Shown in pieces: positions 1 to 14,011 of a stretch of 64,000 bases of DNA; the stretch's first letter is position 1, and the number at the start of each line of letters is the position of its first letter. This DNA comes from Candidatus Poribacteria bacterium (GTDB taxonomy: Bacteria > Poribacteria > WGA-4E > PCPOR2b), in contig OZ244587.1 of the NCBI GenBank assembly GCA_965218095.1, positions 5,920,001 through 5,984,000 of the forward strand, read 5' to 3'. The position numbers and the translations under genes are program-made. The notes below the pieces were generated by a model. The model was not told the DNA's origin, searched no databases, and worked only from the letters and a program-made list of their open reading frames with translations.

Positions 1-1
1 G

Positions 2-646
2 CCCATTGAGCATCGACCCAGACTTTGCACGCTGCTGGACGACGCGCGGATTTTAGGCGTTGCCGGCGGAGTCATGAGCGAAGACTTCAACTACGCCAGC
101 GGGGATGGCAATTATCACGCCGGTGATACCGGCTGGCATCCGGATGGCAGTTGGGGACAGCTTTTTTCCTGCAAGATCGCGTTCTATCTCGATCCACTCA
201 CACGCGATACGGGCTGTTTGCGAGTCATCCCCGGCAGCCAGCGGCCCGATCATTTCGTGCGAGCACAGCAGATTGATCCGAACAGGTCTCAGGAGTTTTT
301 CAGCGTCGCACCGCGTGATTTCCCCGGCAGCATCGCGCTGGAATCGAATCCCGGAGATCTGGTCATATTTAATCACGACATCTATCACGCTTCCTTCAGG
401 GGCGGCGCACGCCGGCGGATGTTCACGATGAACCTGACCCGCAACTGCAAAACCGAGCCAGACCTCAAGACGTTGCATCAGTATCTGAGGCTTCACTCTC
501 CCGGCGGGTACAAAGTTGACACCGGCGGAGGTATGTACTTTCCAACCATACTCGATACCGCCGACGAAACACGAATGATTCACCTCCAGCAGTGCGCCGA
601 CATTCATGATGAATTATTTCCGCAGTACACCCGGCAACGAAGCTGA
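2..646 (+). CDS. Phytanoyl-CoA dioxygenase (PhyH) family Fe(II)/2-oxoglutarate oxygenase, 5' end outside the window
   Basis: The frame is open from base 2. Motifs WHPD (HxD), GCLRVIPGS and PGDLVIFNHDIYHAS (distal His). Confidence 0.85.
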   Translation, partial: PIEHRPRLCTLLDDARILGVAGGVMSEDFNYASGDGNYHAGDTGWHPDGSWGQLFSCKIAFYLDPLTRDTGCLRVIPGSQRPDHFVRAQQIDPNRSQEFFSVAPRDFPGSIALESNPGDLVIFNHDIYHASFRGGARRRMFTMNLTRNCKTEPDLKTLHQYLRLHSPGGYKVDTGGGMYFPTILDTADETRMIHLQQCADIHDELFPQYTRQRS

Positions 647-661
647 AAGACGGAGTACGTT

Positions 662-1137
662 ATGACTGAACTTGATAAATACCTTTTTGATCTTCGGGGA
701 TATATGATTCTGGAAGATGTTTTGAGTCCAGAAGAAGTTGCCGAACTCAATCGTCTTGTTGACGGGCAGAACTTGCCCGAACCTCCGCTGGAGAGTGGAA
801 AGGAGAATACGGCGGCTTCTGCTGCATCCCTGGTAGTCATAAAGCTAACTATCTGTGTCCGCCGGAAATTCGAGAGGCGCACGTCAACGCGGATTGTGTT
901 ATCGTGCCAGAAGTAAGAGCAGGCTCGGTGGTGCTCTTTACCGAAGCCCTGACGCACGGATCTGCGCCGTGGGCTGCCAAGCATCAGTGACTTTCGTTGC
1001 TTTACAAGTACAGCCCGGCGCAACAGTCATGGTCGAAACACCACATCAAACCGCCAGAAGGCGTCGAGTTGACCCTACGCCAGCAACTCCTGTTTGAGCC
1101 ACCTTACTTTAGCGGCAGAACTTCTCTGTTTGAGTGA
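662..1137 (+). pseudogene. PhyH-family dioxygenase pseudogene (internal deletion, frameshift and TGA)
   Basis: N-terminus KYLFDLRGYMILEDVLS is followed in another frame by GGFCCIPGSHK...GSVVLFTEALTHG...HQ*LSLLYKY. Paralog of 58501..59292 with the middle missing. Confidence 0.8.
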
Positions 1138-1250
1138 GAAGGGGGCAGGGGAAGGATTATTAAGTATCAGACGTGAAGCATGATGGGCAAGGGGTTGCCT
1201 TATCCCTCATGGCAGGCACTAGCATGGTTTTGCTACAATAGCAACGGGAT

Positions 1251-2636
1251 TTAAGTCGATTCACAGTCATAAACGACTTCTGTATCGTCATATAGCGGAC
1301 ATTTGCCTTTGGAAAGAATGAGCACAGAATCGCGCGGGACAGAATCAACCATATTGGGATGACGCTTCTGGTTAAATAATTGGCTTGTGCGACGGTTAAG
1401 GTTAATACCATCATCATCGAAGATTGTAATAACATTGAAGCCAACTTCTAATGCTAGCCTTGCCAACCTATAAGTTATGCGATAGATGGGTAGCCCTTTG
1501 ACTTTGCGTGTGACATTCGCCGCGATGATGATGCAGGCACGATTGTGCTTGAGGACACGGTACAATTCGCTCAAAGTCTGTTTCATAGCGAGTTCGTAAT
1601 CTGCTATCGTTGATGTCTTCAACATCTTCTTGGTTTCGGTTTGCCTGTCGCTGCCCAATAACCAAACGCGAATCCAGTTGTCATAAGCATAATCACGGAC
1701 ACCCAAGTAGGGCGGTGAAGTCACAATAAGGTCAACGCTTGCATCCTTGAGGTTGGGCTTGCTTGTTGTGATGTTGCACCTGTAGATGTTGCCCTTCCTT
1801 TGTGGCAAATGCTCCGCGTAAATTCTTTGTGCCTTCCGCTCCAGACAGGTAAAGACATCACGAGGCTCATACTTGAGGCCGTATTTTGCCACATACTCAC
1901 GCACGTAACGCACGCTCGCCGACCAAGTGTCCTTCGTCCGCACTGAAAGAAACATCGGACCATCGCCATGCAAGATGCCGCAGAGCATCGCTTTCACAAA
2001 CAACGCTACATCATGCTGCCTATCACGTTCGACATCGTTGAGTGCAGAGCGCATGGCTGAAATTTGGCGTAATGTCTCAGAATGGTAATACACTTCTTGT
2101 AGGTTTGGCAACATCGGGTCGTCATCTAATTGTCCCCGCTTTAGCCGTACGTCCACCTCCGACTTCAAAAATGCGATAAAATCATCGTATTCCTTTCGGT
2201 TCAGCGGACGCACCTTCGCGTGTGAGAGAGTATAGGCATAGATGAAAATGTCATTGCCAATTGCTTCCCGACCGAGTAAGCAGGCTTCCAGTGGCACAGT
2301 TCCCGATCCGCAAAACGGGTCATACACGACCTCACCTTCTTGGCTAAACTTGCAGATGAAGTAGTGGGCAATGGCAGGCGGAAATCGCCCCAAGTAGGAA
2401 GATAGTTGATGCAGAGGATGATACCAGTATCGCCGATGAACGTGCTTCCAACCGTCAACGATGTCTTCTGATTTGAAGGCGGCAACGGAGGCGTCCGCAA
2501 CAAACTTATCAGCCGCAATTGGCTGCAAAAAGCATCTGCTGTGGCCATCAACGGACGTGGGCAACAGTTGCGAAAGTTTTCGACGTTGCGATGGTTGGCT
2601 TCCGCTGTTGTTACGACTAGAAGTCTTCGTCGTCAT
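1251..2636 (-). CDS. DNA methyltransferase, amino (N4-cytosine-type), motif I before motif IV
   Basis: SAM-binding motif VYDPFCGSGT, catalytic motif DLIVTSPPY and LYRVLK. Start at 2636 (or 2663) overlaps the stop of the upstream frame at 2617-2619. Confidence 0.85.
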   Translation of the reverse strand: MTTKTSSRNNSGSQPSQRRKLSQLLPTSVDGHSRCFLQPIAADKFVADASVAAFKSEDIVDGWKHVHRRYWYHPLHQLSSYLGRFPPAIAHYFICKFSQEGEVVYDPFCGSGTVPLEACLLGREAIGNDIFIYAYTLSHAKVRPLNRKEYDDFIAFLKSEVDVRLKRGQLDDDPMLPNLQEVYYHSETLRQISAMRSALNDVERDRQHDVALFVKAMLCGILHGDGPMFLSVRTKDTWSASVRYVREYVAKYGLKYEPRDVFTCLERKAQRIYAEHLPQRKGNIYRCNITTSKPNLKDASVDLIVTSPPYLGVRDYAYDNWIRVWLLGSDRQTETKKMLKTSTIADYELAMKQTLSELYRVLKHNRACIIIAANVTRKVKGLPIYRITYRLARLALEVGFNVITIFDDDGINLNRRTSQLFNQKRHPNMVDSVPRDSVLILSKGKCPLYDDTEVVYDCEST

Positions 2637-3024
2637 TATCTGGTTCTTCAACCTCCTCCGCATGATTTACAATGTATTCCGCCCGATCGTGGAGTGTCAT
2701 TAGATACTGGATGGATGGTGTTTTCCCAAAGAGAGTTTTTGTATGCACCGGTTTCATGGTCGTGTTGATGTCATTGATATGTTCTCGGAACAGATCAATG
2801 ATTTCCGTCGGGGCATTTTCATTTCTATTCCCGGCATTGGCAACAATGGGGCGTAGAACACGATCGAGGCAAGCCAGAGTTTTGGAATGTGTAACCTCCT
2901 CAACGCCGAGGTCAAAGTAAAGGTTATACTGTCTTTCTTGGTTTGAAGATGGTGTTGCGTACCGGATGTAAAGGCTAGGATCATCAAGAACCCCCTTAAT
3001 TTTACGCGCTTATAAGGTTTAGGC

Positions 3025-3053
3025 TTGCAAGTTTTGTGTAAATTTGATACAAT
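3025..3053 (+). promoter_or_regulatory. Sigma70-like promoter inside the left inverted repeat, driving the transposase
   Basis: TTGCAA-17 bp-TACAAT, followed by RBS AAGGAG before the ATG at 3093. Confidence 0.6.
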
Positions 3054-3092
3054 ATAGGCATCAAACCCTTATGAATAAAGGAGTTGAGATGA

Positions 3093-3974
3093 ATGAACTT
3101 GTTTGATGCTGTAGAACGATTTTCTGACCAAGAGAGTTGTATTAAACACTTAGAAACTATCCGCTGGGGTGGCAAACCTGAGTGTCCATATTGCGAAAGT
3201 AAAAAGGTTGCACCGAAGAATGAAGCTAGCATAATTGGTCGTTGGAATTGCCATACTTGTAAGTCAAGTTTCAATGTGTTACAGGGAACGATATTTCAAG
3301 GAACACAGATTCCACTTCAGAAGTGGTTTATGGCTATCCTGTTAATGAACGATGCGAAGAAAAGCCTATCAAGTTGTCAAATGGCTCGTCATTTGGACTT
3401 AACGCAACCCTCAGCTTGGTTCATGATGAAACGAATCAGGTCTGAGATGGGTAGAAAGGGCAAGGTTTTACTGAGAGGAATTATTGAATGCGATGAAACC
3501 TACGTGGGCGGTAAGCCCCGACGACGAAAAGACAAGGACGGGAACTTGCCTCCACCGAGCAAGCGAGGTAGAGGCACGAAGAAAACGCCCGTTATCGGTG
3601 CTGTTGAACGGGCTGGGAATGTTGTGGCGCGTGTGGCTACGAGTTTGAGTCGTAAGGGCGTTTTGGGGTTCATCAAAGGCGTTATTGAGAAGCCGAAGGA
3701 TTCAGTTCTAATGACAGATGAGTTCTCATCGTATGAGGCGGTTGATGGGCTCATGCCTCACCATGTCATCAGACACAAGAACTGGCAGTACGTGGACGGT
3801 AATACCCACACAAACACGATTGAAGGGTTCTGGTCGCTGGTGAAACGTGCGTTTCATGGTACACATCACCACTACAAGCATGTTTCGCTCTACATCGCTG
3901 AGGCGTGTTACAAGTACAACAACCGGAAGAACCGGAACATCTTCAAGAAGTTTATCAGGGAATGCTTTGTGTAG
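3093..3974 (+). CDS. IS1595 family transposase
   Basis: Zinc ribbon CPYC...WNCHTC, HTH region, and DDE motifs ECDETYVGG, MTDE and HTNTIEGFWS. Confidence 0.95.
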   Translation: MNLFDAVERFSDQESCIKHLETIRWGGKPECPYCESKKVAPKNEASIIGRWNCHTCKSSFNVLQGTIFQGTQIPLQKWFMAILLMNDAKKSLSSCQMARHLDLTQPSAWFMMKRIRSEMGRKGKVLLRGIIECDETYVGGKPRRRKDKDGNLPPPSKRGRGTKKTPVIGAVERAGNVVARVATSLSRKGVLGFIKGVIEKPKDSVLMTDEFSSYEAVDGLMPHHVIRHKNWQYVDGNTHTNTIEGFWSLVKRAFHGTHHHYKHVSLYIAEACYKYNNRKNRNIFKKFIRECFV

Positions 3975-4012
3975 GGTGGGAAAACCTCTGGAGACTCCAT
4001 AGAAGGATTAGA

Positions 4013-4207
4013 TTACACTATTTCCAACCTTTTGAAAATGGTTGTAATTAGTGTGTAGTCATTTTTAAGTAACTGAATTGCAACTCTTAAATCTTCTACG
4101 GTTGCAGTAGAGGTAAATAACCTCTCTTCAATTCGGTGGGTTTTATCAGCATGTTTTTGTAGATGTTCTTTAACACGTTGAATATCCACCTTCCTTTGTG
4201 ATGACAT
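4013..4207 (-). CDS. Small hypothetical passenger protein (64 aa)
   Basis: RBS AAGGAGG upstream; helical-looking sequence; flanked by a perfect 14-bp inverted repeat. Confidence 0.55.
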   Translation of the reverse strand: MSSQRKVDIQRVKEHLQKHADKTHRIEERLFTSTATVEDLRVAIQLLKNDYTLITTIFKRLEIV

Positions 4208-4338
4208 AACATCTGCCTCCTTTCTGAGTCATATTTTCAGAGGTTTTCCCATAAGGGAGTGTCCGGTGGGAGCCGGACACTCTAGCAACAAAATATCAGG
4301 GAGTGCTTTGTGTAGCACCCCCTGATATTGCCTAAGAG

Positions 4339-4449
4339 TTATTGCTTAGGCGTAGCCGTATAAGGACTGCTATACGGCGTTTGATTACCCTTACGTTTAG
4401 CGATTTTGAGTACGATAAACGTAAAGGTTTTGCGTATTTTTATAAACAC
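4339..4449 (-). CDS. Possible 36-aa basic/hydrophobic peptide (MFIKIRKTFTFIVLKIAKRKG...)
   Basis: Strong RBS AAAGGAGGG before a GTG start; below the ORF-track size cutoff. Confidence 0.3.
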   Translation of the reverse strand: MFIKIRKTFTFIVLKIAKRKGNQTPYSSPYTATPKQ

Positions 4450-4576
4450 GATAATCCCTCCTTTCATTGGAATAAGTCGTGATGCAGAGGGTGTTATCAG
4501 CAGTTGTCCGTATATGTGGACTTACAAGCGTGCCGTCTTTACGCCTGTAAGACTTGATGTATTTGATGCGTGGCAT
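4397..4576 (-). CDS. Small 59-aa protein with an SYxRKDGTxVxxHxR motif
   Basis: Hand translation MPRIKYIKSYRRKDGTLVSPHIRTTADNT...; RBS AAAGGAG upstream. The motif is familiar from small hypothetical and phage proteins. Confidence 0.5.
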   Translation of the reverse strand: MPRIKYIKSYRRKDGTLVSPHIRTTADNTLCITTYSNERRDYRVYKNTQNLYVYRTQNR

Positions 4577-4641
4577 GGGGGGTCTCCTTTGCCATGTTGT
4601 GGCGGTGGGGGTGCTATAACACCCCCTCGCCTGTTTTATGT

Positions 4642-5082
4642 CTATCTCATGTGCAATCTTCTAGCAACATTTCGGAGGGTTGTTTCGGTTTGCCCAAATC
4701 GTTCCTCCATTTGGGCATAACGCCCCTCTATACTATCTATTGACTTGATGACTGCTACATGAGTTGCAAGGGTAGTTGTCATGTACCTGTCCATTCTCGT
4801 TACTGACTGTTGAAAAGAATCAAGTTTCTTGTCAATATCTTCAACAGGTACGGTTTTCTTCGCAGTTGCATCTCTAGTTTTCAGATTCTCTGCGATGTTG
4901 GTAAGCTCTACCCTTCTTAAATTGACGACTTCTTCTTTCAGTTGTTTTGCTTCATCTCTGAAGTCTATGAAGGACTTTCTGATACTATACAAATCGTCAC
5001 TACTGGGAATGTGTTTCCAAATGAACTTTCCAGCAGCAATGATAATGAGTATATCCGCTACTACACTAAGAAAATCACTCAT
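4642..5082 (-). CDS. Passenger protein with an N-terminal transmembrane helix and coiled coil
   Basis: Hydrophobic N-terminus FLSVVADILIIIAAG, heptad-like remainder, RBS AAAGGA. Confidence 0.6.
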   Translation of the reverse strand: MSDFLSVVADILIIIAAGKFIWKHIPSSDDLYSIRKSFIDFRDEAKQLKEEVVNLRRVELTNIAENLKTRDATAKKTVPVEDIDKKLDSFQQSVTRMDRYMTTTLATHVAVIKSIDSIEGRYAQMEERFGQTETTLRNVARRLHMR

Positions 5083-5166
5083 TGGGGTGTCCTTTACTTT
5101 GGCGAGGAAAGGTAAAACAAGCCAACGATTTAATAAACTTCAGAATCACAGGCTTGTAACACCCCA

Positions 5167-5195
5167 ATAATATCACATATTCAAAGAATCTGCAA
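5167..5195 (-). promoter_or_regulatory. Sigma70-like promoter inside the right inverted repeat, driving the passenger genes
   Basis: Minus strand reads TTGCAG-17 bp-TATTAT with TG just upstream of the -10. Confidence 0.5.
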
Positions 5196-5994
5196 GCCAA
5201 TTATTTATAAATGCGTAATTTTATTGGTCTCCTGGATATGGTCAAGGAGCGTTCCTTTCCTCATTGGGTCACGCTTGAGGACGCGAAGGCCAATGCGGGT
5301 GAGTTCCCCCGATATGATATCCGGATAGCTCTTGATGTTATTCGTTGGGTCAACCTGAATCTTGAGTGCCTCTTCGCATCGTATTGCCCCATACATCAGA
5401 AGGAACAATGCTAACGAAATGTTGAACGGACTCAAACTTCGGCTGCGTTGCACACTCATGCTGACTTTCTTTACGAAGGCCTCCAATGTGCAATGACTAT
5501 GTTTCTGATGACACTCGTCGATCAGCCTGTCGAAGTCCTGAACACCCATGGTTTCCTTGTCGGTCATTGCATCAATCCTCCGATAAACAAACAGCCCCAG
5601 AGGCAGCACGAGAACCTTTGATGACTCGGTATAGCGGCTCTTGTCCAATTCCACCTCGTGAATCAGCCTCCACTTCTTCAACTGCTGTATAGCCTCCTCA
5701 ATTGTGTCTGCCATCCAATCTTCATTTATATCCCTGTCAAACAGGTCCATCGGTGTGCGGACATTTTGTATAAGCTGCTGGCATGAGTGTAGTTTGTCAA
5801 AGGGGGGCTTCAACTTGTTGACACGCCACATTTCAAAAAGGGCTTCGGCAGGCTCATCAAGATCAAGCGCCTTTCCTATCTGGTGCATCATATCTTCTTC
5901 GATTACAAGCCGCAAGATACGGTGAACAAGGCGCAAGTCCAGTTCTGTTGTATTTTGTCGCGAATTTCGCATTATCCTCACTCCTGAAAATAAA

Positions 5995-8343
5995 TCAGTT
6001 CATTGCCTGTGCAGTAAGTTCTGGAATCTCTTCAACCTTGACGAATACAGCAGCTAAGATATTATCCATTTGCTTTAACTCATCATACAGTGGTTCACCA
6101 ATCTGTTCGACGTCACCCCACTCGTCCACAAGTAGAACAACTCCGAAAGCCTTGGACGAAGGTCGCGACACAAGGCTGCGAACGGTCATAACAGATTCTG
6201 TTCCACCGCTGAGATTTGCTCTGTTGAGATCTCTGTCTAATCCGCCTACCCTGAATCTAGGCGTATCACGTCCAATCTGCTCATAGATAACCGCTTCAAG
6301 TGGTAAAGGGTTGCACGTCTCCCCAGAGTTATCATAGTAGTATTGGCAGCGCTTGGTGATTAGGCTATCGATGGTCTCCTTGAGTAATTGCGCCAACCCA
6401 ACCTCGTCAAGATATCTCAACGCCTTCTGAACGTCTTCCGATTGGCGATTCTCGTCTGTCCTTGCATTGGCAACTTCTATTACATAAGAGACATTTTCAA
6501 TGAATTGTCTAATGTGGTCGGCTCGTTCGGCGGCTTTCTCTATCTGAGTTGATTGTGCTTTCATCAATAATTGCTCCTCAAGCTGGTACTTCTGCTGCTC
6601 CAACTCACGCTGCTGTCTCCGTAGGCGACGCAAAACACCCTCAACTTCACGCTCTCGTTCTTGCAAATAAGAGATAGCATTCGCTGACCAAACCCTGTTA
6701 AGGTGCTCGTCTGAAGGTCCTTCCAGGGTTTTAACTGTGTCCTCAAGATTCTCCCTTGTCTCTTGTACCTCCTTGGTCAAGGACTTCCTCATTTGCTCGA
6801 TTTGAGTTCTGAGCGCATTGGTGTCTTGTTCCCCTGCTACCATGGGTTGAGTTTGCTGTTCCTCCTTCAACTCGCCCTCTGCCTGCTGCAACTCTTTAGC
6901 ATAATCTGAAACCTCATTTTCGAGGGTTTGGTAGTCAAGGGGTGTCATCCCCAAATTGATGTCCGTTTTCTGCAAACGCTGCATGAACTTTTCGATGGCT
7001 TCGTTTATAGGAACGAGATTTTCTGCTTTCTCCAAGTGCTCCTGAAGACGAGACAGCAAGGAGGCAGCGTCACGAATGTCATCTCCTAACGGCAAGAGAA
7101 CGATTTCAGGAGAAGCATTATCCTCAACAGCACGAATGAGAGAACGATAGACTTCAAGACTCTCGGTTCCAAGTCCTTTGTGAAAGGCGTTACAGACACC
7201 CTGTACATCTGAATTCTTTATATATGTAAGGAAATCCTCTTCGGGCGATGTACTAATGCGTCGCTGATCGAGTAGCCTATCAATCTCAATTTGCAGTCCC
7301 CCGAAAGCATCACCAACAGCTTTCTTTTTCGCGTCTAGATCCTGATATCTTCTTTTCAGTTGTTTGACTTCCCCTTCTTTCTCCTGTAGACGCTTTTGGT
7401 GATCAGCCTTCTGGTGCTTTGCATCCTCAGCCGCATGTAAATCACGCTCAAGGCGGTACAGCCTCTCAATGGCCTGACGGCTATCTCCACCCAGTTGCTT
7501 CAGATAGCCAACAATGTCATGAATCGCGGCGCGTTGACCTACATAGTGCTTTCTTTCATCCTCTTTCTGTTGGAGTGTAGTCTGGACATCTCCTATTTGG
7601 CTTTCAATGGCTTGCCTGTCCATTTGCCCCGCTGTCTGTCGCTGCCGCGGACGCGCGCTTTGAAGTATCAGCCGTGTAAGAGCTGGCTGGCTGTCCCCAG
7701 TTAATTTTTCACCGAGCACTTTTATGTCATTCAGGATATCCAACTCCACTCGCTCAATGAAGTTCCTTCCCTTCGACACTAATTGAACGTCTACCAGACT
7801 ATTCATGTAATGCTCGAAGGGTTCCCAGCCCCTGTGCAGATTAAACGAGCGCTCATCAGAGCTGTTAGCAACACCATAAGCGACGGAAGCCTTACCGTCT
7901 TTCACATCAATCACCAAAAGATGATTGCCTTTGACAATCTCCATGTCCGCTGCACGGGTCTGACTAAGAGACTTACGTAGCGCCTGTCCTTTCTTCACAA
8001 ACTCCTCATCGCCCAAGAATCGCACGTTGTCATGCTCATCCCAAGAATAGCCAAGCAGCGTTGCCATGCACAAGAGCACAGTTGTTTTGTTCCTCTGGCT
8101 CTCGGCGGATAGCAACATCGCGTTTCCGTCCATCGTGCAATCAAACGAGGCCTTGTATTCGTCTTGAAGATGGAACTTGATTTTGGTGGGCTTCTTCTCT
8201 AAAACGGTAGGTTGCCCAGGGGAGATGTTGAAGATGGAGTTGGCATCCGCGTTATCTACGCCAACTTTCCGCGCAATTTCCCTGTAGAAGTCAATTATGC
8301 TTTAATCAAAGACAGGATTGGTATCCGTCGCCATTTCGGGCAT
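5995..8343 (-). CDS. SMC/Rad50-like coiled-coil ABC ATPase; 783-codon frame with an in-frame TAA at codon 14 (712-aa ORF from 8133)
   Basis: Degenerate Walker A LLSAESQRNKTT, long central coiled coil, ABC signature LSGGTES and Walker B VLLVDEWG. GAGGAGG RBS plus ATG at 8343 is in frame with 8133 except for TAA at 8302-8304. Confidence 0.75.
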
Positions 8344-8356
8344 TGTAATTACCTCC

Positions 8357-9754
8357 TCATATCTGCAAAAGTTGTGCAAGCATGTTCTTCAACCGGTGGC
8401 CGACCACCTCAACGTTCGGAATTTGCATCGGGGTGGTGTCATCTACATCCATACCAAAGCGCACAATCGGGATAGTCTCGTCTTGGTACTGCGTTATAGG
8501 CGAAGTCTTGTCCTTTTTCAAGATCTTCGTGTCCAGATATTCACGCACGACTTCGCTGCTCCTCGGGTGCCGTATTGCTGCGAAGTAAAGTCGGTCTATA
8601 CCTTGTCGCTCGCTTGGTGTCCAACATTTATGCACCACGATGGGAACTAAGGCAATGTCATAAGTCACCCCCATCCACATGTATCGCCAGCAATCAAATC
8701 TCCAGAGCTGTTCACGAAATTCTGAGGTGTCCTGCTCCCTATAAAATTTGGCGATCTCTTTCGAGCGTCCATAACGTGGATTTGGGTTGACAGAAACAAA
8801 CAGCAGGCTCAGGTCATTCACGAGGGGCAGGGAAGCTTCGACCATTTGATGAATATCCTCGAATGGATCAACGTCAATTATATCAAAGCGCCATCCTGTC
8901 TGCTGAATTTCAGATATTATTTTGTATGCATTCATCGCGTTTGGTGGCATCAGAACCCTGAAGCGCTGCTCATGCTCATAGCGCGAGAGCAACTCTTCAA
9001 GGGGCCACTCTTCGTTCACGTGTTCCAACAAGTCAGCGGCATGATGTTTGTGAGCATCGAACGCCTTCGTAAATCGAACATCTTCCTTCTCGACCGAAAC
9101 GACCAGACCATAGTTTGCGAATATTCGTGTTCCATCACCATAACCCTGGGTGGGTTCAAAGATAGCAAGTGACTTCTTTCCAGGAATACGGCAGAAGGTC
9201 TCACACAAGATTCGATTGAGTTCATGCTTGGTCTCAGTAGCAGGCAAGACTGCCCCTAAACCTGATTGTTCTTTCCCGTAAGTGTACGCATAATCCTGCA
9301 AGCTTTGAAAATGCTGCTTATTCGCCCCCAATATCATTCGTATCGCCCACTGTGTGTTCTTGAGCTCCTCACCATTCCTCAGTTCCTCGTAAGCCAAGCG
9401 TCTCGCTTCCCGTTTCCTCAAACCTTGCTTCGTCCTTTTATACATTGGCACGTCTTTGTCCAGTGTGTTTGCTTGCTCACGGAATAGAGGACTCAGGGTA
9501 CTGCTGGCACAAAACTTCTCTAATTCGTCAACAGGAACTTCAAGGGTCGCGGCGATTTGTACGAGCGGCAGCCCCTCCATAATCATGCGCTCCAATTGCT
9601 TGCGCTCGCCCTCTATCTCGCGTTGCCAATCAGTTGATTCAGCAGCCATTGTGCGTAGAATCGCTCTTATACGCGGCTTATCCTCCACACTGCTGATAGT
9701 GAAGTACTTGTGCAAAATCTGAACTACATCGTTTGTTACTACTCGCAAAAGCAT
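8357..9754 (-). CDS. HTH plus class I SAM-dependent methyltransferase-like protein
   Basis: HTH-like EGLPLVQIAATLEVPVDEL, motif I-like IFEPTQGYGDGT, acidic strand end VVSVEK and motif IV-like FDIIDVDPF. Confidence 0.55.
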   Translation of the reverse strand: MLLRVVTNDVVQILHKYFTISSVEDKPRIRAILRTMAAESTDWQREIEGERKQLERMIMEGLPLVQIAATLEVPVDELEKFCASSTLSPLFREQANTLDKDVPMYKRTKQGLRKREARRLAYEELRNGEELKNTQWAIRMILGANKQHFQSLQDYAYTYGKEQSGLGAVLPATETKHELNRILCETFCRIPGKKSLAIFEPTQGYGDGTRIFANYGLVVSVEKEDVRFTKAFDAHKHHAADLLEHVNEEWPLEELLSRYEHEQRFRVLMPPNAMNAYKIISEIQQTGWRFDIIDVDPFEDIHQMVEASLPLVNDLSLLFVSVNPNPRYGRSKEIAKFYREQDTSEFREQLWRFDCWRYMWMGVTYDIALVPIVVHKCWTPSERQGIDRLYFAAIRHPRSSEVVREYLDTKILKKDKTSPITQYQDETIPIVRFGMDVDDTTPMQIPNVEVVGHRLKNMLAQLLQI

Positions 9755-9809
9755 TGTATATCAAAATATAACGTCAGCAGTGGGGGATGTCCTGTCACTT
9801 TGTACCGCC

Positions 9810-9838
9810 ATTATATATCCGTTGGTGCTTTCTGTCAA
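9810..9838 (-). promoter_or_regulatory. Consensus sigma70 promoter for the 9754-1251 operon
   Basis: Minus strand reads TTGACA-17 bp-TATAAT, an exact consensus match. Confidence 0.8.
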
Positions 9839-9894
9839 GTGACCAAATTGGGGGAGCGTGTAATGGTGCTTCTATGCCTTGGATCAGATTCATG

Positions 9895-10665
9895 TTAGAA
9901 TCTCGCAGCTAGCGCATCCCGTCGGACCGGCGAATTAATGAACAGCGAGTCACCGCCGTCAATCGTGACCTCTAATCCCGTTGCCCACGCCGCCTCGTCG
10001 GAACAGAGCCAGAGCGCGGCGTAAGCAATGTCAATTGGGTTGCCGAGCCGCTCAAGTTTCGGCTCGGCGGGACGGACAGCGCCGCCGGGCAGCGGGTCCC
10101 AGATGATGCCGGGAGAGATGGCGTGGGCGCGGATGTTTTTGTCGTAGAGTTCCCTCGCCAGATTCTGCGCTGCTGCTATCATTCCCGCCTTTGCCGTCGC
10201 ATAAGCGCTGTTGGCGTCCTGACGCACACGAGCTCCCGCCGAGAGCGTAATGATGCAGCCTCCGCCCCGTGATTCCATTATCGGTACAAGACGTCGTACA
10301 GGTAAGAACAAGGTTCGTAAATTGTTCTGTAGTGCCTCGTCCCAAAACGACGGCTCCATGTTGGCGATGTCATGGTCGGTCGAGAAGAAACCGCCTGCGG
10401 CGTGGATAAAGCAATCCACACCACCGAATTCGTCCACTGCCGCTTGAACGAGCGCATCCACCTGAGCCTCATCGGTCAGGTCGGTTTGGAGCGTCAACAC
10501 CTCACCGCCTGCTGCACGCACACGGTCTGCGGTCTCGTTCAGCTTTTCCGCTGTCCGCGCAGCCAAGACCAGTTTTGCGCCTTCCTGCGCAAACAGTATT
10601 GCAGTTGCACGACTCATGTTCTGGCCTGCACCGCCAATAAGCACAACTTTGTCTTTCAATCTCAT
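9895..10665 (-). CDS. SDR family oxidoreductase
   Basis: Rossmann N-terminus LKDKVVLIGGAG, catalytic YATAK, NIRAHAISPG and TIDGG. Confidence 0.9.
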   Translation of the reverse strand: MRLKDKVVLIGGAGQNMSRATAILFAQEGAKLVLAARTAEKLNETADRVRAAGGEVLTLQTDLTDEAQVDALVQAAVDEFGGVDCFIHAAGGFFSTDHDIANMEPSFWDEALQNNLRTLFLPVRRLVPIMESRGGGCIITLSAGARVRQDANSAYATAKAGMIAAAQNLARELYDKNIRAHAISPGIIWDPLPGGAVRPAEPKLERLGNPIDIAYAALWLCSDEAAWATGLEVTIDGGDSLFINSPVRRDALAARF

Positions 10666-10692
10666 GATATATTCCTCCGTCAAAGTTTAGTG

Positions 10693-10726
10693 AAACCTTG
10701 CAAAGGTTTCAAACCTTCGCAAGGTT
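10693..10726. repeat. REP-like palindrome AACCTTxCxAAGGTTTxAAACCTTCGxAAGGTT
   Basis: Related copies at about 25500-25532 and 47128-47158, all intergenic. Confidence 0.7.
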
Positions 10727-12074
10727 AGGGCATCCGTTTCACGTAAGAGATTGCTTCTCTCATGAAGCCCAAAGCTGCTTTGATCCGATCTGGTTCCTCA
10801 AACCCATAAGATAACCTGAATTGTCTTTTCCCAACCTCAACGATGTCGCCTTTTGGGTGAACACAGTGCTCGCCGGGGATGTAGACGACTCGCGGATATC
10901 GAGAAGCTGGCGGGCCATTGATTTCTTCCCTTTCAATCGTTCTTGCGAGGAAATTGAAAAACGGCGAACCTTCGTACGTTTCAACATCATCCAAAGTCAA
11001 ATAGAAGTAAAATCCCGCCTTACCTCCCCGACATTCTAAAACCGCATGACCTAAAAGCTGTTCGATCCAGCTTTTGACTTGCTGCGCTTTCTTCCGATAC
11101 CCCCGATTGACCGCTTCAATTTGATCCTTGATGTGGTAATCTAATAGATAACTGGCGATCTCTTGGTTAATCAACGGCACACTAAACCCGACATCACTCG
11201 TCCTTTGAATCATCGCACTTACAAAGTGCCCATCTGCTCCAATTAGATAGCCAATCCGCAGCCCCGGCGCCAAGATTTTCGACAACGTTCCAATTTCGTA
11301 AACAATCCCAATTTCATCATAAAGGAACCCAGATCTTAACGGCTCCACCGTTGGGTCATGGACAAGATCTTCGTAGGCTTTATCGAAGAACAGCGGCACT
11401 TTCCTGCCGAGGTCACGGGATAATCGGGTTGCAATTTCAACCACTTCTCTCCTTCGTGCATTCGAGAGGATGGTGCTGGTTGGATTATTAATCGTGACGA
11501 TATAAAAGCACCGAATTGCACGCTTCTGATCGCCGAGCTCTTTGAGCTTTGATCTTAATAGTTCTGTTTGTATTCCGTTCTCATCTTCAGGGACAGTGAC
11601 AACCCGGAAGCCGATCCTTTCGAGGTAATTGCAATAGATATAGTACATCGGATCGGACGTGATGATGATTCCGGGGGGCAACAAATGGGCGATGCCTTCC
11701 AGCAAGCTCGTGGCACCGTTTGGCCCAATGATAATCTCTTTCTCCCGCAACCCCTGTTCGGTAAGCCCGCCAATCTGATTCTCAATGTAGAACCTTCTAA
11801 TCGATTCAATCAGGTTTGGGGACCCCTGCGTGCCACCGTAATTCAATGCCGCCCGATATTTCTGGGGGTGAGCAAGTACCTCCCGGCAAGCTACCTCAAT
11901 TAACCGAGGAGGAATCGTTCTTTCGTTGACATACCCTACACCGAGATTAATATCACAATCATCCCGAAAATTAACCGCAAAGGCGGTCATCATTCGATTG
12001 ACGGGGGAAGGGATACTTGAAGCCTTTCCGTATTCAGATAATGAAATTTCTTGGAGATTCATAATCACGTTCAT
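10725..12074 (-). CDS. PLP-dependent aminotransferase class I/II
   Basis: Motifs NNPTS, FFDKAY and GTLSKILAPGLRIGY. Confidence 0.9.
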   Translation of the reverse strand: MNVIMNLQEISLSEYGKASSIPSPVNRMMTAFAVNFRDDCDINLGVGYVNERTIPPRLIEVACREVLAHPQKYRAALNYGGTQGSPNLIESIRRFYIENQIGGLTEQGLREKEIIIGPNGATSLLEGIAHLLPPGIIITSDPMYYIYCNYLERIGFRVVTVPEDENGIQTELLRSKLKELGDQKRAIRCFYIVTINNPTSTILSNARRREVVEIATRLSRDLGRKVPLFFDKAYEDLVHDPTVEPLRSGFLYDEIGIVYEIGTLSKILAPGLRIGYLIGADGHFVSAMIQRTSDVGFSVPLINQEIASYLLDYHIKDQIEAVNRGYRKKAQQVKSWIEQLLGHAVLECRGGKAGFYFYLTLDDVETYEGSPFFNFLARTIEREEINGPPASRYPRVVYIPGEHCVHPKGDIVEVGKRQFRLSYGFEEPDRIKAALGFMREAISYVKRMP

Positions 12075-12092
12075 TTGATGAAAAAACGCAAA

Positions 12093-12641
12093 TCAAGTAT
12101 TGCATATCACGTATTGCGTATTGGCAGCGTTGAGTGTAAGCTTTTCACTCTGTGACAGCTTCAGCGCTTCAACGTCGTCTAAAGGATAAAAATGCGATTC
12201 AATCTCGTAGTCGTCAACACGCTTGGCGCCAGGTATAAACCTATCTGCTTGTGCCATATAGATCAGTTGTATAAAGTCCGGATGCAGATATTTATAGTCC
12301 GGTGGTTTGGATTTGAGATGGTGAAAATGCATAAATCCAAGCATGGATACACCAGTAATCGTCCAGCCCGTCTCTTCCAGCACTTCACGACGGAGCGTTT
12401 CCTCAAAAGTCTCGCCCACTTCACACTGTCCGCCGGGGATGATGTGAACCTCGTCTGGATTCCGAACCACAAGAATTGAATCGTCCCGCAAGACCAGCGT
12501 GCGTACCGGCGTGATATAGTCGAGCGGCGGCAATTCATCGGTTAGATAGCTAGTCGTGCGAATGGGAAGATCTCCCCAAACCGCTACATCCTCGACAAGG
12601 GCTTTATGACGTGCCAGAAATTCAGCAAGATCGGCCTTCAT
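12093..12641 (-). CDS. NUDIX hydrolase
   Basis: Nudix box PGGQCEVGETFEETLRREVLEETG. Confidence 0.9.
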   Translation of the reverse strand: MKADLAEFLARHKALVEDVAVWGDLPIRTTSYLTDELPPLDYITPVRTLVLRDDSILVVRNPDEVHIIPGGQCEVGETFEETLRREVLEETGWTITGVSMLGFMHFHHLKSKPPDYKYLHPDFIQLIYMAQADRFIPGAKRVDDYEIESHFYPLDDVEALKLSQSEKLTLNAANTQYVICNT

Positions 12642-12665
12642 TACATCAGCCTCGCTTTCTCGGTA

Positions 12666-13973
12666 CTATTCTAAGATTTTCACGTAGGAAACCATCTCTT
12701 GAACGATGGGCAAAACATCCTTGGGCTGCATGATACCCTTCTCCGTGACGATGGCACTGATTAGCTCATCCGGGGTGATCTCAAAGTAGAGATTCCTGGC
12801 GCTCACATTCGGCAGCGTCTCTGAAAAGACTTCTTGGCTATCCTTTTCTTCCAATTCGACGGATGCACGGACATGAAATTTATCCGTTTGACAGAGGACG
12901 TATGCCGGGACGCACTGCTTTTTAGCCGCGAGGGCAATTAGGTAAGTCCCCGCCTTGCTGACCACGGCGCCATCGGGAAGCACCGCGTCTGCGCCAATGA
13001 ACACAATATCCGCCCTTTGCATGAAATGTCCCGCCTGTGCATCGGTGATGAGTGTGACCGGATATTGCTCCGACAGGAGCCTGGCGGTTTTGACGCCTTC
13101 ATTTAATGGTCTGGATTTCGTGACAATAATCTGAAACCCTTTTCGGCGTGCGTCCAAAATTGCCGCCACGACCGTCGAACTATAGCTATGTGTGAAAATC
13201 ATCATGTTATCAGATAGCAGATCATGCGCCTTTTGCACAATAATCTGAGACGCCTTTCGGGCAGTCGTTCGGTATTGATCGATAAGTTCAGAAAAGTGTG
13301 CCTTGAAATCAGATGCAGACTTCCCTTGAGACAGACGCTGCTTGGCATGATACAGCACAAAGGCAACTGCGTTTGTCAATAGGATCATGGTCGGTCTTGC
13401 GTTGTGCAGATGCCAACCCACGTTTGATAGATACGCAAAGGGCTCATCGGGGGCTTTACCGGAGGCTTCCTCCACTGTCGTTTTCAATACTTCCAACGCC
13501 ATTAACACCAACTCGGACGCCCCATGCACCCGATCCTCTCCGATTTCAGCGATTTGGGTTACAACCGGTTGCCCCAGATAAACGCTGTCTAAGGTTTGCT
13601 TGAGGTTTGGAACGGTTGGGTATGATGTAATCTGGTCCGGCTCAATCCACTGCTTCTCGACATGTTCCCAATCCGTGCGGATTTCCGCTGGTTCGGGGAC
13701 ATGATAGAGAAACGGGTAAACCCTCCAAAGGATACTCCCATCTTCAATCTGCAGCGGTTTTCCCTTTCTGACAAATTGGACTGCTTCGGGAGAAAGCCCT
13801 GTCTCCTCTTCGATTTCTTTGAGGACCCGCTCATCAGGAGATTCATGCTCTTCTATCGAGCCGCTCACACCCGCCCAATGATAGGGATATGTTCTAACTT
13901 TGCCGCTACGCTTGAGCAGCAGAATTTTCCCTTGATGCTCTAAAAACGCAGTCACAACACACCTTTTTTTCAT
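12666..13973 (-). CDS. NUDIX domain fused to an eIF-2B alpha / ribose-1,5-bisphosphate isomerase / MtnA-like domain
   Basis: N-terminal GSIEEHESPDERVLKEIEEETG; C-terminal HGASEL, RPTM, THSYSSTV, SRPLNEG, GADAV, KAGTY and FEITP. Confidence 0.85.
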   Translation of the reverse strand: MKKRCVVTAFLEHQGKILLLKRSGKVRTYPYHWAGVSGSIEEHESPDERVLKEIEEETGLSPEAVQFVRKGKPLQIEDGSILWRVYPFLYHVPEPAEIRTDWEHVEKQWIEPDQITSYPTVPNLKQTLDSVYLGQPVVTQIAEIGEDRVHGASELVLMALEVLKTTVEEASGKAPDEPFAYLSNVGWHLHNARPTMILLTNAVAFVLYHAKQRLSQGKSASDFKAHFSELIDQYRTTARKASQIIVQKAHDLLSDNMMIFTHSYSSTVVAAILDARRKGFQIIVTKSRPLNEGVKTARLLSEQYPVTLITDAQAGHFMQRADIVFIGADAVLPDGAVVSKAGTYLIALAAKKQCVPAYVLCQTDKFHVRASVELEEKDSQEVFSETLPNVSARNLYFEITPDELISAIVTEKGIMQPKDVLPIVQEMVSYVKILE

Positions 13974-14011
13974 TTTTACTCCGGTTCTGTGGTTTCCTTC
14001 GGGGGCAAAAC

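Follow-up and report, generated by a model that had tools for sequence, protein, structure and literature searches.

Several described systems place an ATPase at the centre of DNA modification or defence. As described in PMC10853773, an ATPase of the DndD/CxC-ABC type and its partner DndE scan DNA as a pair and bring in modification enzymes, among them cytosine-N4 methylases with a circular permutation. In MANTIS (bioRxiv 10.64898/2026.09.23.753747), an ATPase and a co-regulator are required to load the methyltransferase, which has been shown experimentally. MADS is described in PMC13662399 as combining methylation with Rad50/SMC-like ATPase-nuclease modules. Here, we describe a four-gene locus from a Candidatus Poribacteria bacterium (assembly GCA_965218095.1, contig OZ244587.1), located within a stretch of 64,000 nucleotides (nt) that spans positions 5,920,001 to 5,984,000 of the forward strand. 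This whole stretch is referred to as the window, and all coordinates are given within it. The region at 1251–9838 is a single operon encoding a rare, unnamed four-component module, and the present copy is disabled. The original prediction, made by a model from the DNA letters without database searches, had described two methyltransferases flanking an SMC-like ABC ATPase and a winged-helix-like protein, and had suggested that they may act against plasmids or phages or in DNA modification. Tentatively, and with a little less than even confidence, we read the intact module as an ATPase loader acting with two methyltransferases, that is, as a variant of the ABC-ATPase-centred DNA-modification or defence modules that follow a Dnd/Pbe- or MANTIS-like logic.

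The operon and the insertion sequence (IS) that interrupts it comprise the following features, listed from the promoter onwards (aa, amino acids; ORF, open reading frame):

9810–9838, minus strand: sigma-70-type promoter TTGACA-17-TATAAT, upstream of gene 1, matching the consensus at 12 of 12 positions.
8357–9754, minus strand: gene 1, intact, 465 aa; a helical N-terminal region and a Rossmann methyltransferase-like domain (motif I IFEPTQGYG, motif IV DVDPF).
5995–8343, minus strand: gene 2, 782 codons, with an in-frame TAA at 8304–8302 (codon 14); a very divergent, probable coiled-coil ABC ATPase with Walker A-like AESQRNKT, DVQLVSKGRNF, LSGGT and LLVDEWGD.
5216–5981, minus strand: N-terminal piece of gene 3, which reads into the IS and stops after three foreign codons at 5205.
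3005–5215, plus strand: IS1595-family element of 2,211 bp, with a transposase gene at 3093–3974 (plus strand), imperfect terminal inverted repeats and a passenger ORF at 4642–5082 (minus strand).
2617–3004, minus strand: C-terminal piece of gene 3 with an acidic tail, aligned by BLASTP to residues 252–374 of the homologue P0008 (E 3e-19).
1251–2663, minus strand: gene 4, intact, 470 aa; motif I DPFCGSGT near residue 105 and motif IV SPPY near residue 320.

All four genes are carried on the minus strand. The stop codon of gene 1 (8359–8357) is followed by 13 bp that include GGAGG and then by the gene 2 ATG at 8343. The stop codon of gene 2 ends at 5995 and the GTG of gene 3 lies at 5981, again a gap of 13 bp, while the gene 3 stop codon (2619–2617) falls 44 nt within gene 4 (ATG at 2663), an overlap of 47 nt. 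These short gaps with their Shine–Dalgarno sequence, the overlap of genes 3 and 4, and the single promoter argue for one operon, whose spacing is that of translational coupling. The perfect consensus promoter is the sole 12/12 match among 13 promoter-like sites in a scan of 900–10100. Simple arithmetic for these 9.2 kb on both strands gives a chance expectation of about 0.001 for such a match, and shuffled sequence yields 11.3 ± 3.2 promoter-like sites at a looser threshold. A 7-nt inverted repeat, GTCACTT/AAGTGAC (9794–9800 and 9837–9843), flanks the promoter and extends into the -35 box with one arm. The N-terminal region of gene 1 might use it as an operator, and an arm so short could arise by chance.

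The operon is flanked by metabolic genes, with PhyH-type dioxygenases on one side and SDR, aminotransferase and NUDIX proteins on the other. The predicted setting of four co-oriented genes between metabolic genes behind an exact promoter is thus borne out, and all of the motifs named at the outset (EPTQGYG, DVDPF, LSGG, LLVDE, DPFCGSGT and SPPY) are present. The tight spacing described in the original prediction applies to the repaired operon; as the sequence stands, it is broken by the TAA in gene 2 and by the 2,211-bp IS in gene 3.

These two lesions inactivate the copy in this genome: translation of gene 2 would end at codon 14, and an IS that has been active recently divides gene 3. With regard to the first, the homologue P0002 (770 aa, 42% identity) covers the gene 2 frame from end to end, also ahead of the annotated methionine, and it aligns through the position of the TAA, as do the close fragments P0081 and P0011. 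Because homologues align across codon 14, the true start of gene 2 is the ATG at 8343 and the TAA is a nonsense change rather than a frameshift. The codon is reproduced, with 0 differences, in contigs of the public runs X1 and X2, which may be the source sample. The agreement of these two runs means that the TAA is no mistake confined to one assembly. A contig of run X4 that covers 6002–9900 has 14 differences, and among the 13 listed, none falls at 8302–8304.

The second lesion, a transposable element that the original prediction did not recognise, encodes an ISXO2-like DDE transposase with an N-terminal zinc ribbon (DDE_Tnp_IS1595, E 1.6e-34; Zn_ribbon_IS1595, E 3.6e-08; both above cut-off) and is flanked in gene 3 by the 8-bp target duplication TAATTTTA. 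When the element and one duplicate are removed, gene 3 has 381 codons and no internal stop, which agrees with the reconstructed length of about 390 aa given beforehand. Nine full-length copies of the element are listed in the genome at 100% identity, and the 8-bp duplication is found at eight of the nine. The identity of these copies suggests a recent burst. An empty site is present in run X4, which is labelled as a different organism and study. There, a contig of 2,879 nt joins position 2996 to 5216 and skips 2,219 bp, equal to the element plus one duplicate. Compared with the window, one flank of this contig has 8 changed letters in 597, and the other has 7 changed letters and a 9-bp insertion in 795. 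The empty site implies that gene 3 is uninterrupted in a close relative and that the insertion is recent.

The relative in run X4 carries its 9-bp insertion in frame within gene 3 (at 5745) and has about 1% substitutions across the operon. The element has further contents. Its minus-strand passenger ORF (4642–5082) encodes 146 aa, with a hydrophobic N-terminus and a coiled-coil-like remainder, and it also holds an ORF of 71 aa (4013–4228) and a strong hairpin with a 16-bp stem (4292–4329). RNA-library contigs labelled as sponge metagenome cover the element only, with variants common to run X4. In contigs from X1 and X2, position 3027 is followed, after 9 foreign letters, by position 3937. They may represent a shorter derivative of the element that is without most of the transposase gene, and since the short side of this joint has 25 letters, it could be a repeat or derive from another organism.

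Gene 2 founds its own unannotated family, for which there is no Pfam or NCBIfam model. A word-indexed search returned a single homologue. An exhaustive HMMER search (A1) retrieved 72 representatives among 1.84 billion proteins, with 58 at E ≤ 1e-10 and 21 at E ≤ 1e-30. In their sources, members of the family are labelled ‘hypothetical protein’ (Tumebacillus avium, Paenibacillus graminis and a Symbiobacteriaceae metagenome-assembled genome) and once ‘chromosome segregation ATPase’. Representatives include WP_087458030.1 from T. avium, WP_326080209.1 from P. graminis, HYF79328.1 and a member on a 39,989-bp contig of the European Nucleotide Archive. The alignment used here (A4) consists of the gene 2 protein and 39 representatives, leaving out its own shorter annotation, P0001, and 32 fragments below 650 aa.

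In this alignment, an N-terminal strand is followed by the first conserved block, G-x-N-Q-x-[GNFYH]-K-T-T-x-L-x-x-x-A-x-L-L-G, and the second, DVQFVSKGRNF, begins about 100 residues later. About 430 residues that are mostly helical and show little conservation separate these from the C-terminal blocks [LI]SGGTxSxMTVxSLAS and VLLVDEWGD. The C-terminal head segment of gene 2 reads LSGGTESVMTVRSLVSRPSSKAFGVVLLVDEWGD, in which the signature LSGG is followed, about 28 residues on, by a Walker B motif of the form hhhhDE and a D-loop. Residues G699, G700, D726, E727 and D730 show either no variation or a conservation of at least 90%, and K72 and T73 of Walker A are invariant in all 40 members, with a downstream ‘LLG’ at SMC-like spacing. 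As judged from these motifs, the order of blocks appears to be that of coiled-coil ABC ATPases, namely Walker A, a Q-loop-like segment, the arm, the signature, Walker B and the D-loop. In our own reading, the spacing between signature and Walker B would also be that of SMC proteins. Residue composition suggests that helical arms at about 225–345 and 460–640 surround a conserved middle piece.

The residue before the Lys-Thr pair of Walker A is G in 12 of the 40 members, N in 15, Y in 7, F in 5 and H in 1 (P0034 was read by eye as NKT). These variants track the clades of a quick tree, in which gene 2 and P0002 form an NKT clade of their own. The signature also varies by clade, being LSGG in some and HGG or GGG in others. 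Clade-dependent variation in both motifs appears to be unusual for an ABC ATPase family.

Profile–profile comparison places gene 2 near known coiled-coil ATPases with weak scores. With hhalign, the alignment of gene 2 to the genome's own SMC protein has an E-value of 1e-4 and a probability of 56%, and it ends at the C-terminal head; alignment to a 30-sequence RecN alignment (E 0.008) brings signature and Walker B together. The heads alone align with the RecF P-loop (E 0.0056), an SbcC-like ORF (E 0.0047), SMC (E 0.025) and RecN (E 0.09). Weak as they are, these matches are always in register on the right motifs. Among NCBIfam models, ASRP matches P0002 from the P-loop onward (E 4e-4), and SMC matches gene 2 in the coil only (E 3.5e-6). 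Searches of PDB sequences with the profiles A1, A2 and A3 gave chance-level matches only. No related loci were found by tblastn when gene 2 was compared with plasmids and phages, or when three distant family members were compared with plasmids. For the SMC-like ATPase of the original prediction, the motif order of a coiled-coil ABC ATPase is upheld; the SMC-like label has motifs and sub-threshold, in-register matches behind it, with no Pfam SMC or AAA domain at E 0.1 and hhalign E-values from 1e-4 to 0.09.

The closest described arrangement is the DndD/CxC-ABC and DndE core, including PbeABCD. As set out in PMC10853773, this core likewise comprises a coiled-coil ABC ATPase with an insert of about 400 residues and an obligate partner gene, and DNA-modifying enzymes are recruited to it. 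In contrast to the DndD/CxC clade, none of the 40 gene 2 members has a CxC or CxxC hook (searched as C-x(1,2)-C) in the middle region. The partner here, at 381 aa, is not the small protein with two ribbon-helix-helix motifs that DndE is, and no DndE or PbeD match was found with Pfam, NCBIfam or PADLOC for the gene 3 pieces, P0008 or P0009. Because the 13-bp gaps leave no room, no small DndE-like ORF fits between the genes either. Unlike Dnd and Pbe loci, the operon is also without an HKD-SF2 helicase, a small disordered protein and DndA/B/C. The PADLOC models for DndD and PbeC each match one of the 40 gene 2 members, with E-values of about 1e-3.

Lamassu (LmuABC) and Wadjet (JetABCD) are alike in having an SMC-like ATPase and a partner in a small operon of patchy distribution, and the LmuB, JetC and JetB matches at this locus are weak. 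The PADLOC LmuB model matches gene 2 (E 1.2e-5) and 10 of the 40 members (best E 7e-8), mad8 matches 6 of the 40, and JetC matches gene 2 (E 1e-3). Such matches would favour a complete anti-phage or anti-plasmid system, in which foreign DNA is sensed by the SMC-like ATPase in the manner of Lamassu or Wadjet, a cryptic effector resides in gene 3 or gene 1, and the methyltransferases only protect self. None of 175 other genomes of the phylum yielded the module, and its occurrence in metagenomes is patchy, a distribution typical of defence genes; its rapid decay, visible as a nonsense codon and an IS here and as fragmented homologues elsewhere, points the same way. We nevertheless regard this explanation as improbable. 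The LmuB, mad8 and JetC matches lie in the coiled-coil region and not in the heads, and the LmuB, JetC and JetB matches are sub-threshold; the guanine-plus-cytosine content of the operon (47.7%) ranks no lower than the 12th percentile of the genome, with no tRNA or integrase adjoining; and no nuclease, Toprim, Sir2, TIR or similar effector domain was found in the four proteins. Moreover, the locus has neither the LmuA-type effector of Lamassu nor the JetA kleisin and JetD Toprim of Wadjet, and both of those systems are without methyltransferases, unlike this operon.

More generally, no system was matched by PADLOC when the operon proteins and their immediate flanks were searched, and genes 1–3 were unassigned. 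The four proteins are without Toprim/JetD, an LmuA-type effector, DndA/B/C/E, PglZ, a helicase or a kinase, which agrees with the earlier view that the locus fits no known system. No description of this gene set was found in the literature, where prior mention in a classification of ABC ATPases or in supplements is possible.

The partner gene, gene 3, has two homologues: P0008 (383 aa), which aligns to both halves, and P0009. An acidic tail ends gene 3, P0008 and P0009 alike. No known family was found for the gene 3 pieces or these homologues, and nothing was found in PHROGs for genes 1 and 3. A JetB match to gene 3 (E 0.018, 12 bits) and a DpdG match to P0008 (E 0.007) are best treated as noise.

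Gene 1 has three homologues, with 44–55% identity, among 5.8 billion clusters, and no Pfam, NCBIfam, PADLOC or PHROG family at E ≤ 0.1. The segment IFEPTQG(Y/V)G and, about 90 residues on, FD(I/V)IDVDPF are conserved in all four members of this family. By their spacing and pattern, we interpret these as probable motifs I and IV of Rossmann N-methyltransferases, in keeping with the methyltransferase-like layout predicted for gene 1. The only family signal is to Trm1, which is alike in the DxDPF catalytic-loop region; it is restricted to the motif IV region and lies below curated cut-offs. PF02005 matches two of the four members (best E 0.0022), and for gene 1 itself, the match covers residues 271–321 at E 0.18 (11.4 bits against a cut-off of 27). 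TIGR00308 matches the homologue P0005 at E 0.013 (14.9 bits against a cut-off of 280). Gene 1 differs from Trm1 in its N-terminal region and in its location within a DNA-methyltransferase/ATPase operon. No real Trm1 genes were found in the sample of the phylum, where three of 61 genomes gave matches above cut-off, all of them generic and methyltransferase-like. The N-terminal 190 residues hold a conserved segment, PL(V/L)QIAAxLxVPxDELEKF, that looks like a helix-turn-helix by eye and was confirmed as such by no tool. The same holds for the winged helix proposed for gene 3, for which the JetB match was the only hint. No loci related to gene 1 were found in plasmids by tblastn.

Gene 4 matches PF01555 at E 2e-18 (67.6 bits against a cut-off of 26.7) and the PADLOC MTase_II model at E 1.4e-37 over residues 81–374, as well as the other generic methyltransferase models PglX (E 8e-13) and mad2 (E 1.8e-9). 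Its closest solved relatives are the DNA cytosine-N4 methyltransferases 8s9m and 8s9n (E 2e-6). In these, SPPY precedes FxGxG, and the order is reversed in gene 4, a circular permutation. Gene 4 is thus a methyltransferase, as predicted at the outset: a bona fide DNA amino-methyltransferase of the N4-cytosine/N6-adenine type, with a permuted motif order. The SPPY motif tends to mark N4-cytosine enzymes. Type II and orphan beta-class methyltransferases (PF01555) are alike, as gene 4 passes the cut-off for their family and has both FxGxG and SPPY; it differs from them in having motif I before motif IV, and no restriction endonuclease gene adjoins it.

Relatives of gene 4 were found in 17 plasmid records. 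In two of the three plasmid contexts opened, they are located beside ATPase or nuclease genes: a DUF87/HerA-type ATPase gene on a Halorarius plasmid, and a DUF87/HerA-type ATPase together with NurA, with IS200/IS605 insertions, on a Deferribacter megaplasmid. Identity to gene 4 is 31–35% in these two cases. This hints that the permuted gene 4-type methyltransferase is a shared module of several ATPase-based systems.

Systems in which methylation and an ATPase are combined provide the remaining comparisons. According to the MANTIS source, MANTIS (Gao_RL) and BREX are likewise multi-gene operons in which an ATPase and a co-factor are needed for the methyltransferase to mark self. By the same account, MANTIS differs in having an AAA+ rather than an ABC ATPase, a helicase-nuclease effector (MtsD) and one methyltransferase. 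In contrast to Gao_RL and BREX, the four proteins match only generic methyltransferase models in PADLOC, and the hallmarks of BREX and DISARM (PglZ, BrxC and BrxL; the DrmA/B/D helicases) were not matched by the operon proteins. MADS is also methylation-based and has SMC/Rad50-like P-loop ATPase modules. As described in PMC13662399, it differs in having eight genes, a kinase and two ATPase-nuclease modules (MAD3/4 and MAD7/8), and none of these partners is present here.

Both methyltransferase genes are intact, while the ATPase and its partner are broken, as if methylation alone were valuable or harmless. This would fit a role other than defence, that is, an ATPase-driven epigenetic module, or one for the maintenance of chromosomes or elements, in which methylation serves regulation or replication control. 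Such a role would also suit the lack of a restriction component in cis and an N-terminal region of gene 1 that looks DNA-binding by eye. We consider it doubtful, as the module is very rare and patchy, a poor fit to a housekeeping function, no paralogues or partner loci were found in the genome, and relatives of gene 4 occur beside HerA/NurA-type genes.

The distribution of the genes bears on whether they form one system. Profiles of gene 2 (A4) and gene 1 (A2) each match only the window's genome among 176, and gene 2 was not found in the 40 nearest relatives. Searches of genome, metagenome and viral contigs with A1–A4 found no related loci, the genome and metagenome scans predating A4. Three contigs in the European Nucleotide Archive (ENA) appear to carry homologues of more than one gene. 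A 7,245-bp contig holds P0004 (gene 1 type) and P0012 (an N-terminal fragment of gene 2 type); a 21,936-bp contig holds P0010 (gene 1 type) and three gene 2-type pieces (P0081, P0013 and P0027); and a 17,017-bp contig holds P0009 (gene 3 type) and P0082 (gene 2 type). The first two represent near-identical organisms, so that together with the third they amount to two lineages besides that of the window. These lineages are 42–70% identical to the window and to each other.

Outside this species group, no evidence was found for the co-occurrence of gene 4 with genes 1–3. A gene 4-type methyltransferase is common on its own, being present in 84 of the 175 other genomes of the phylum (E ≤ 1e-20), and genes 1 and 2 are present in none of these. 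The four genes might not be one system at all. Gene 4 would then be an ordinary orphan or Type II methyltransferase and gene 1, whose sole family signal is to a tRNA methyltransferase, perhaps one that acts on RNA, both beside an unrelated pair of ATPase and partner. Among the alternatives, this is the one to which we give least credence: the 13-bp gaps with their Shine–Dalgarno sequence, the 47-nt overlap of genes 3 and 4, and the single promoter speak against it, as do the homologues of genes 1 and 2 and of genes 2 and 3 on common contigs in the two other lineages. The linkage of homologues elsewhere, on which the original prediction depended, is thus upheld for these two pairs, by inferred co-location, and not for gene 4.

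Under the reading we favour, an ATPase loader with two methyltransferases, a dimer of the gene 2 ATPase and the gene 3 protein would form a complex that loads onto or scans DNA. This complex might position or license both methyltransferases on DNA, and the whole would then be an ATP-dependent machine for epigenetic self-marking, by a logic like that proposed for DndD/CxC-ABC with DndE and demonstrated for MANTIS. The mark would most likely serve discrimination against foreign DNA, with a restriction partner that gene 3 conceals or that is encoded outside the operon. The N-terminal helical region of gene 1 may bind DNA and autoregulate the consensus promoter. A bolder version, which we think unlikely, is that of a nuclease-free ABC-ATPase methylation machine. 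Here, an ATPase family that has exchanged the last Walker A glycine for Asn, Phe or Tyr in the majority of its clades and a partner of novel fold would load two methyltransferases, one of them a Trm1-type enzyme moved from RNA to DNA, and so produce a previously unknown mark of self and non-self.

A number of observations weigh against the favoured reading. With regard to the ATPase, the last glycine of Walker A is missing in 28 of the 40 members, so ATP binding is not assured. Gene 2 has no Pfam family, including SMC and AAA, at E ≤ 0.1; Pfam searches of the 40 members gave only coiled-coil noise, with no family common to more than two members; SMC_N (PF02463) found no match to the locus in a six-frame search; and the hhalign probability for gene 2 is at most 56%, so that no family is matched with statistical significance. 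Gene 1 may act on RNA instead of DNA or lack activity altogether, and none of the effector domains sought in the four proteins was found. The linkage evidence has its own limits. Co-location on the ENA contigs was inferred from the same source and equal size in bp rather than read from the DNA, and it comes from close homologues, with 70 more distant members of the gene 2 family outside its scope and no such link for gene 4. Several of the homologues (P0006, P0009, P0012, P0013, P0027, P0081 and P0082) are truncated or split into ORFs with foreign C-terminal residues, which would reflect either repeated decay of the module or indel-rich assemblies. Finally, RNA contigs (runs X8–X11) cover only the IS part and none of the four genes, and are uninformative on the expression of these genes.

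No Rfam family was found within 1–11000 and no tRNA within 1–14000. Downstream of the operon, a second PhyH-type gene at 662–1097 (plus strand) is split across two frames (ORFs 662–916 and 855–1097) and has the look of a pseudogene created by a frameshift, one more sign that genes in this genome are decaying. An ORF at 604–1023 (minus strand) was considered as a fifth gene and rejected, being Arg/Ser-rich and antisense to this pseudogene. No empty site for the whole operon was found in a relative; the genome G005 keeps the IF2B–NUDIX–aminotransferase order, and synteny breaks before the SDR gene.

The observation itself is real and the copy described here is dead; the outline of the interpretation is plausible, and its mechanism is unproven. 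For this genome, the operon is a decaying relic, inactivated by a nonsense codon together with an IS of which the genome has nine identical copies, with other broken genes nearby. The gene 2 ATPase belongs to a family that has no Pfam or NCBIfam model and is recorded as ‘hypothetical protein’ even in the cultured Bacillota Tumebacillus avium and Paenibacillus graminis. The variation in its Walker A motif, with G, N, F, Y or H before an invariant Lys-Thr, amounts to an unusual natural experiment on nucleotide binding by ABC ATPases. If the four genes do cooperate, they would constitute a new family among the ATP-dependent, methylation-based systems of DNA discrimination, alongside restriction–modification, BREX, DISARM, MADS, MANTIS and Dnd/Pbe.

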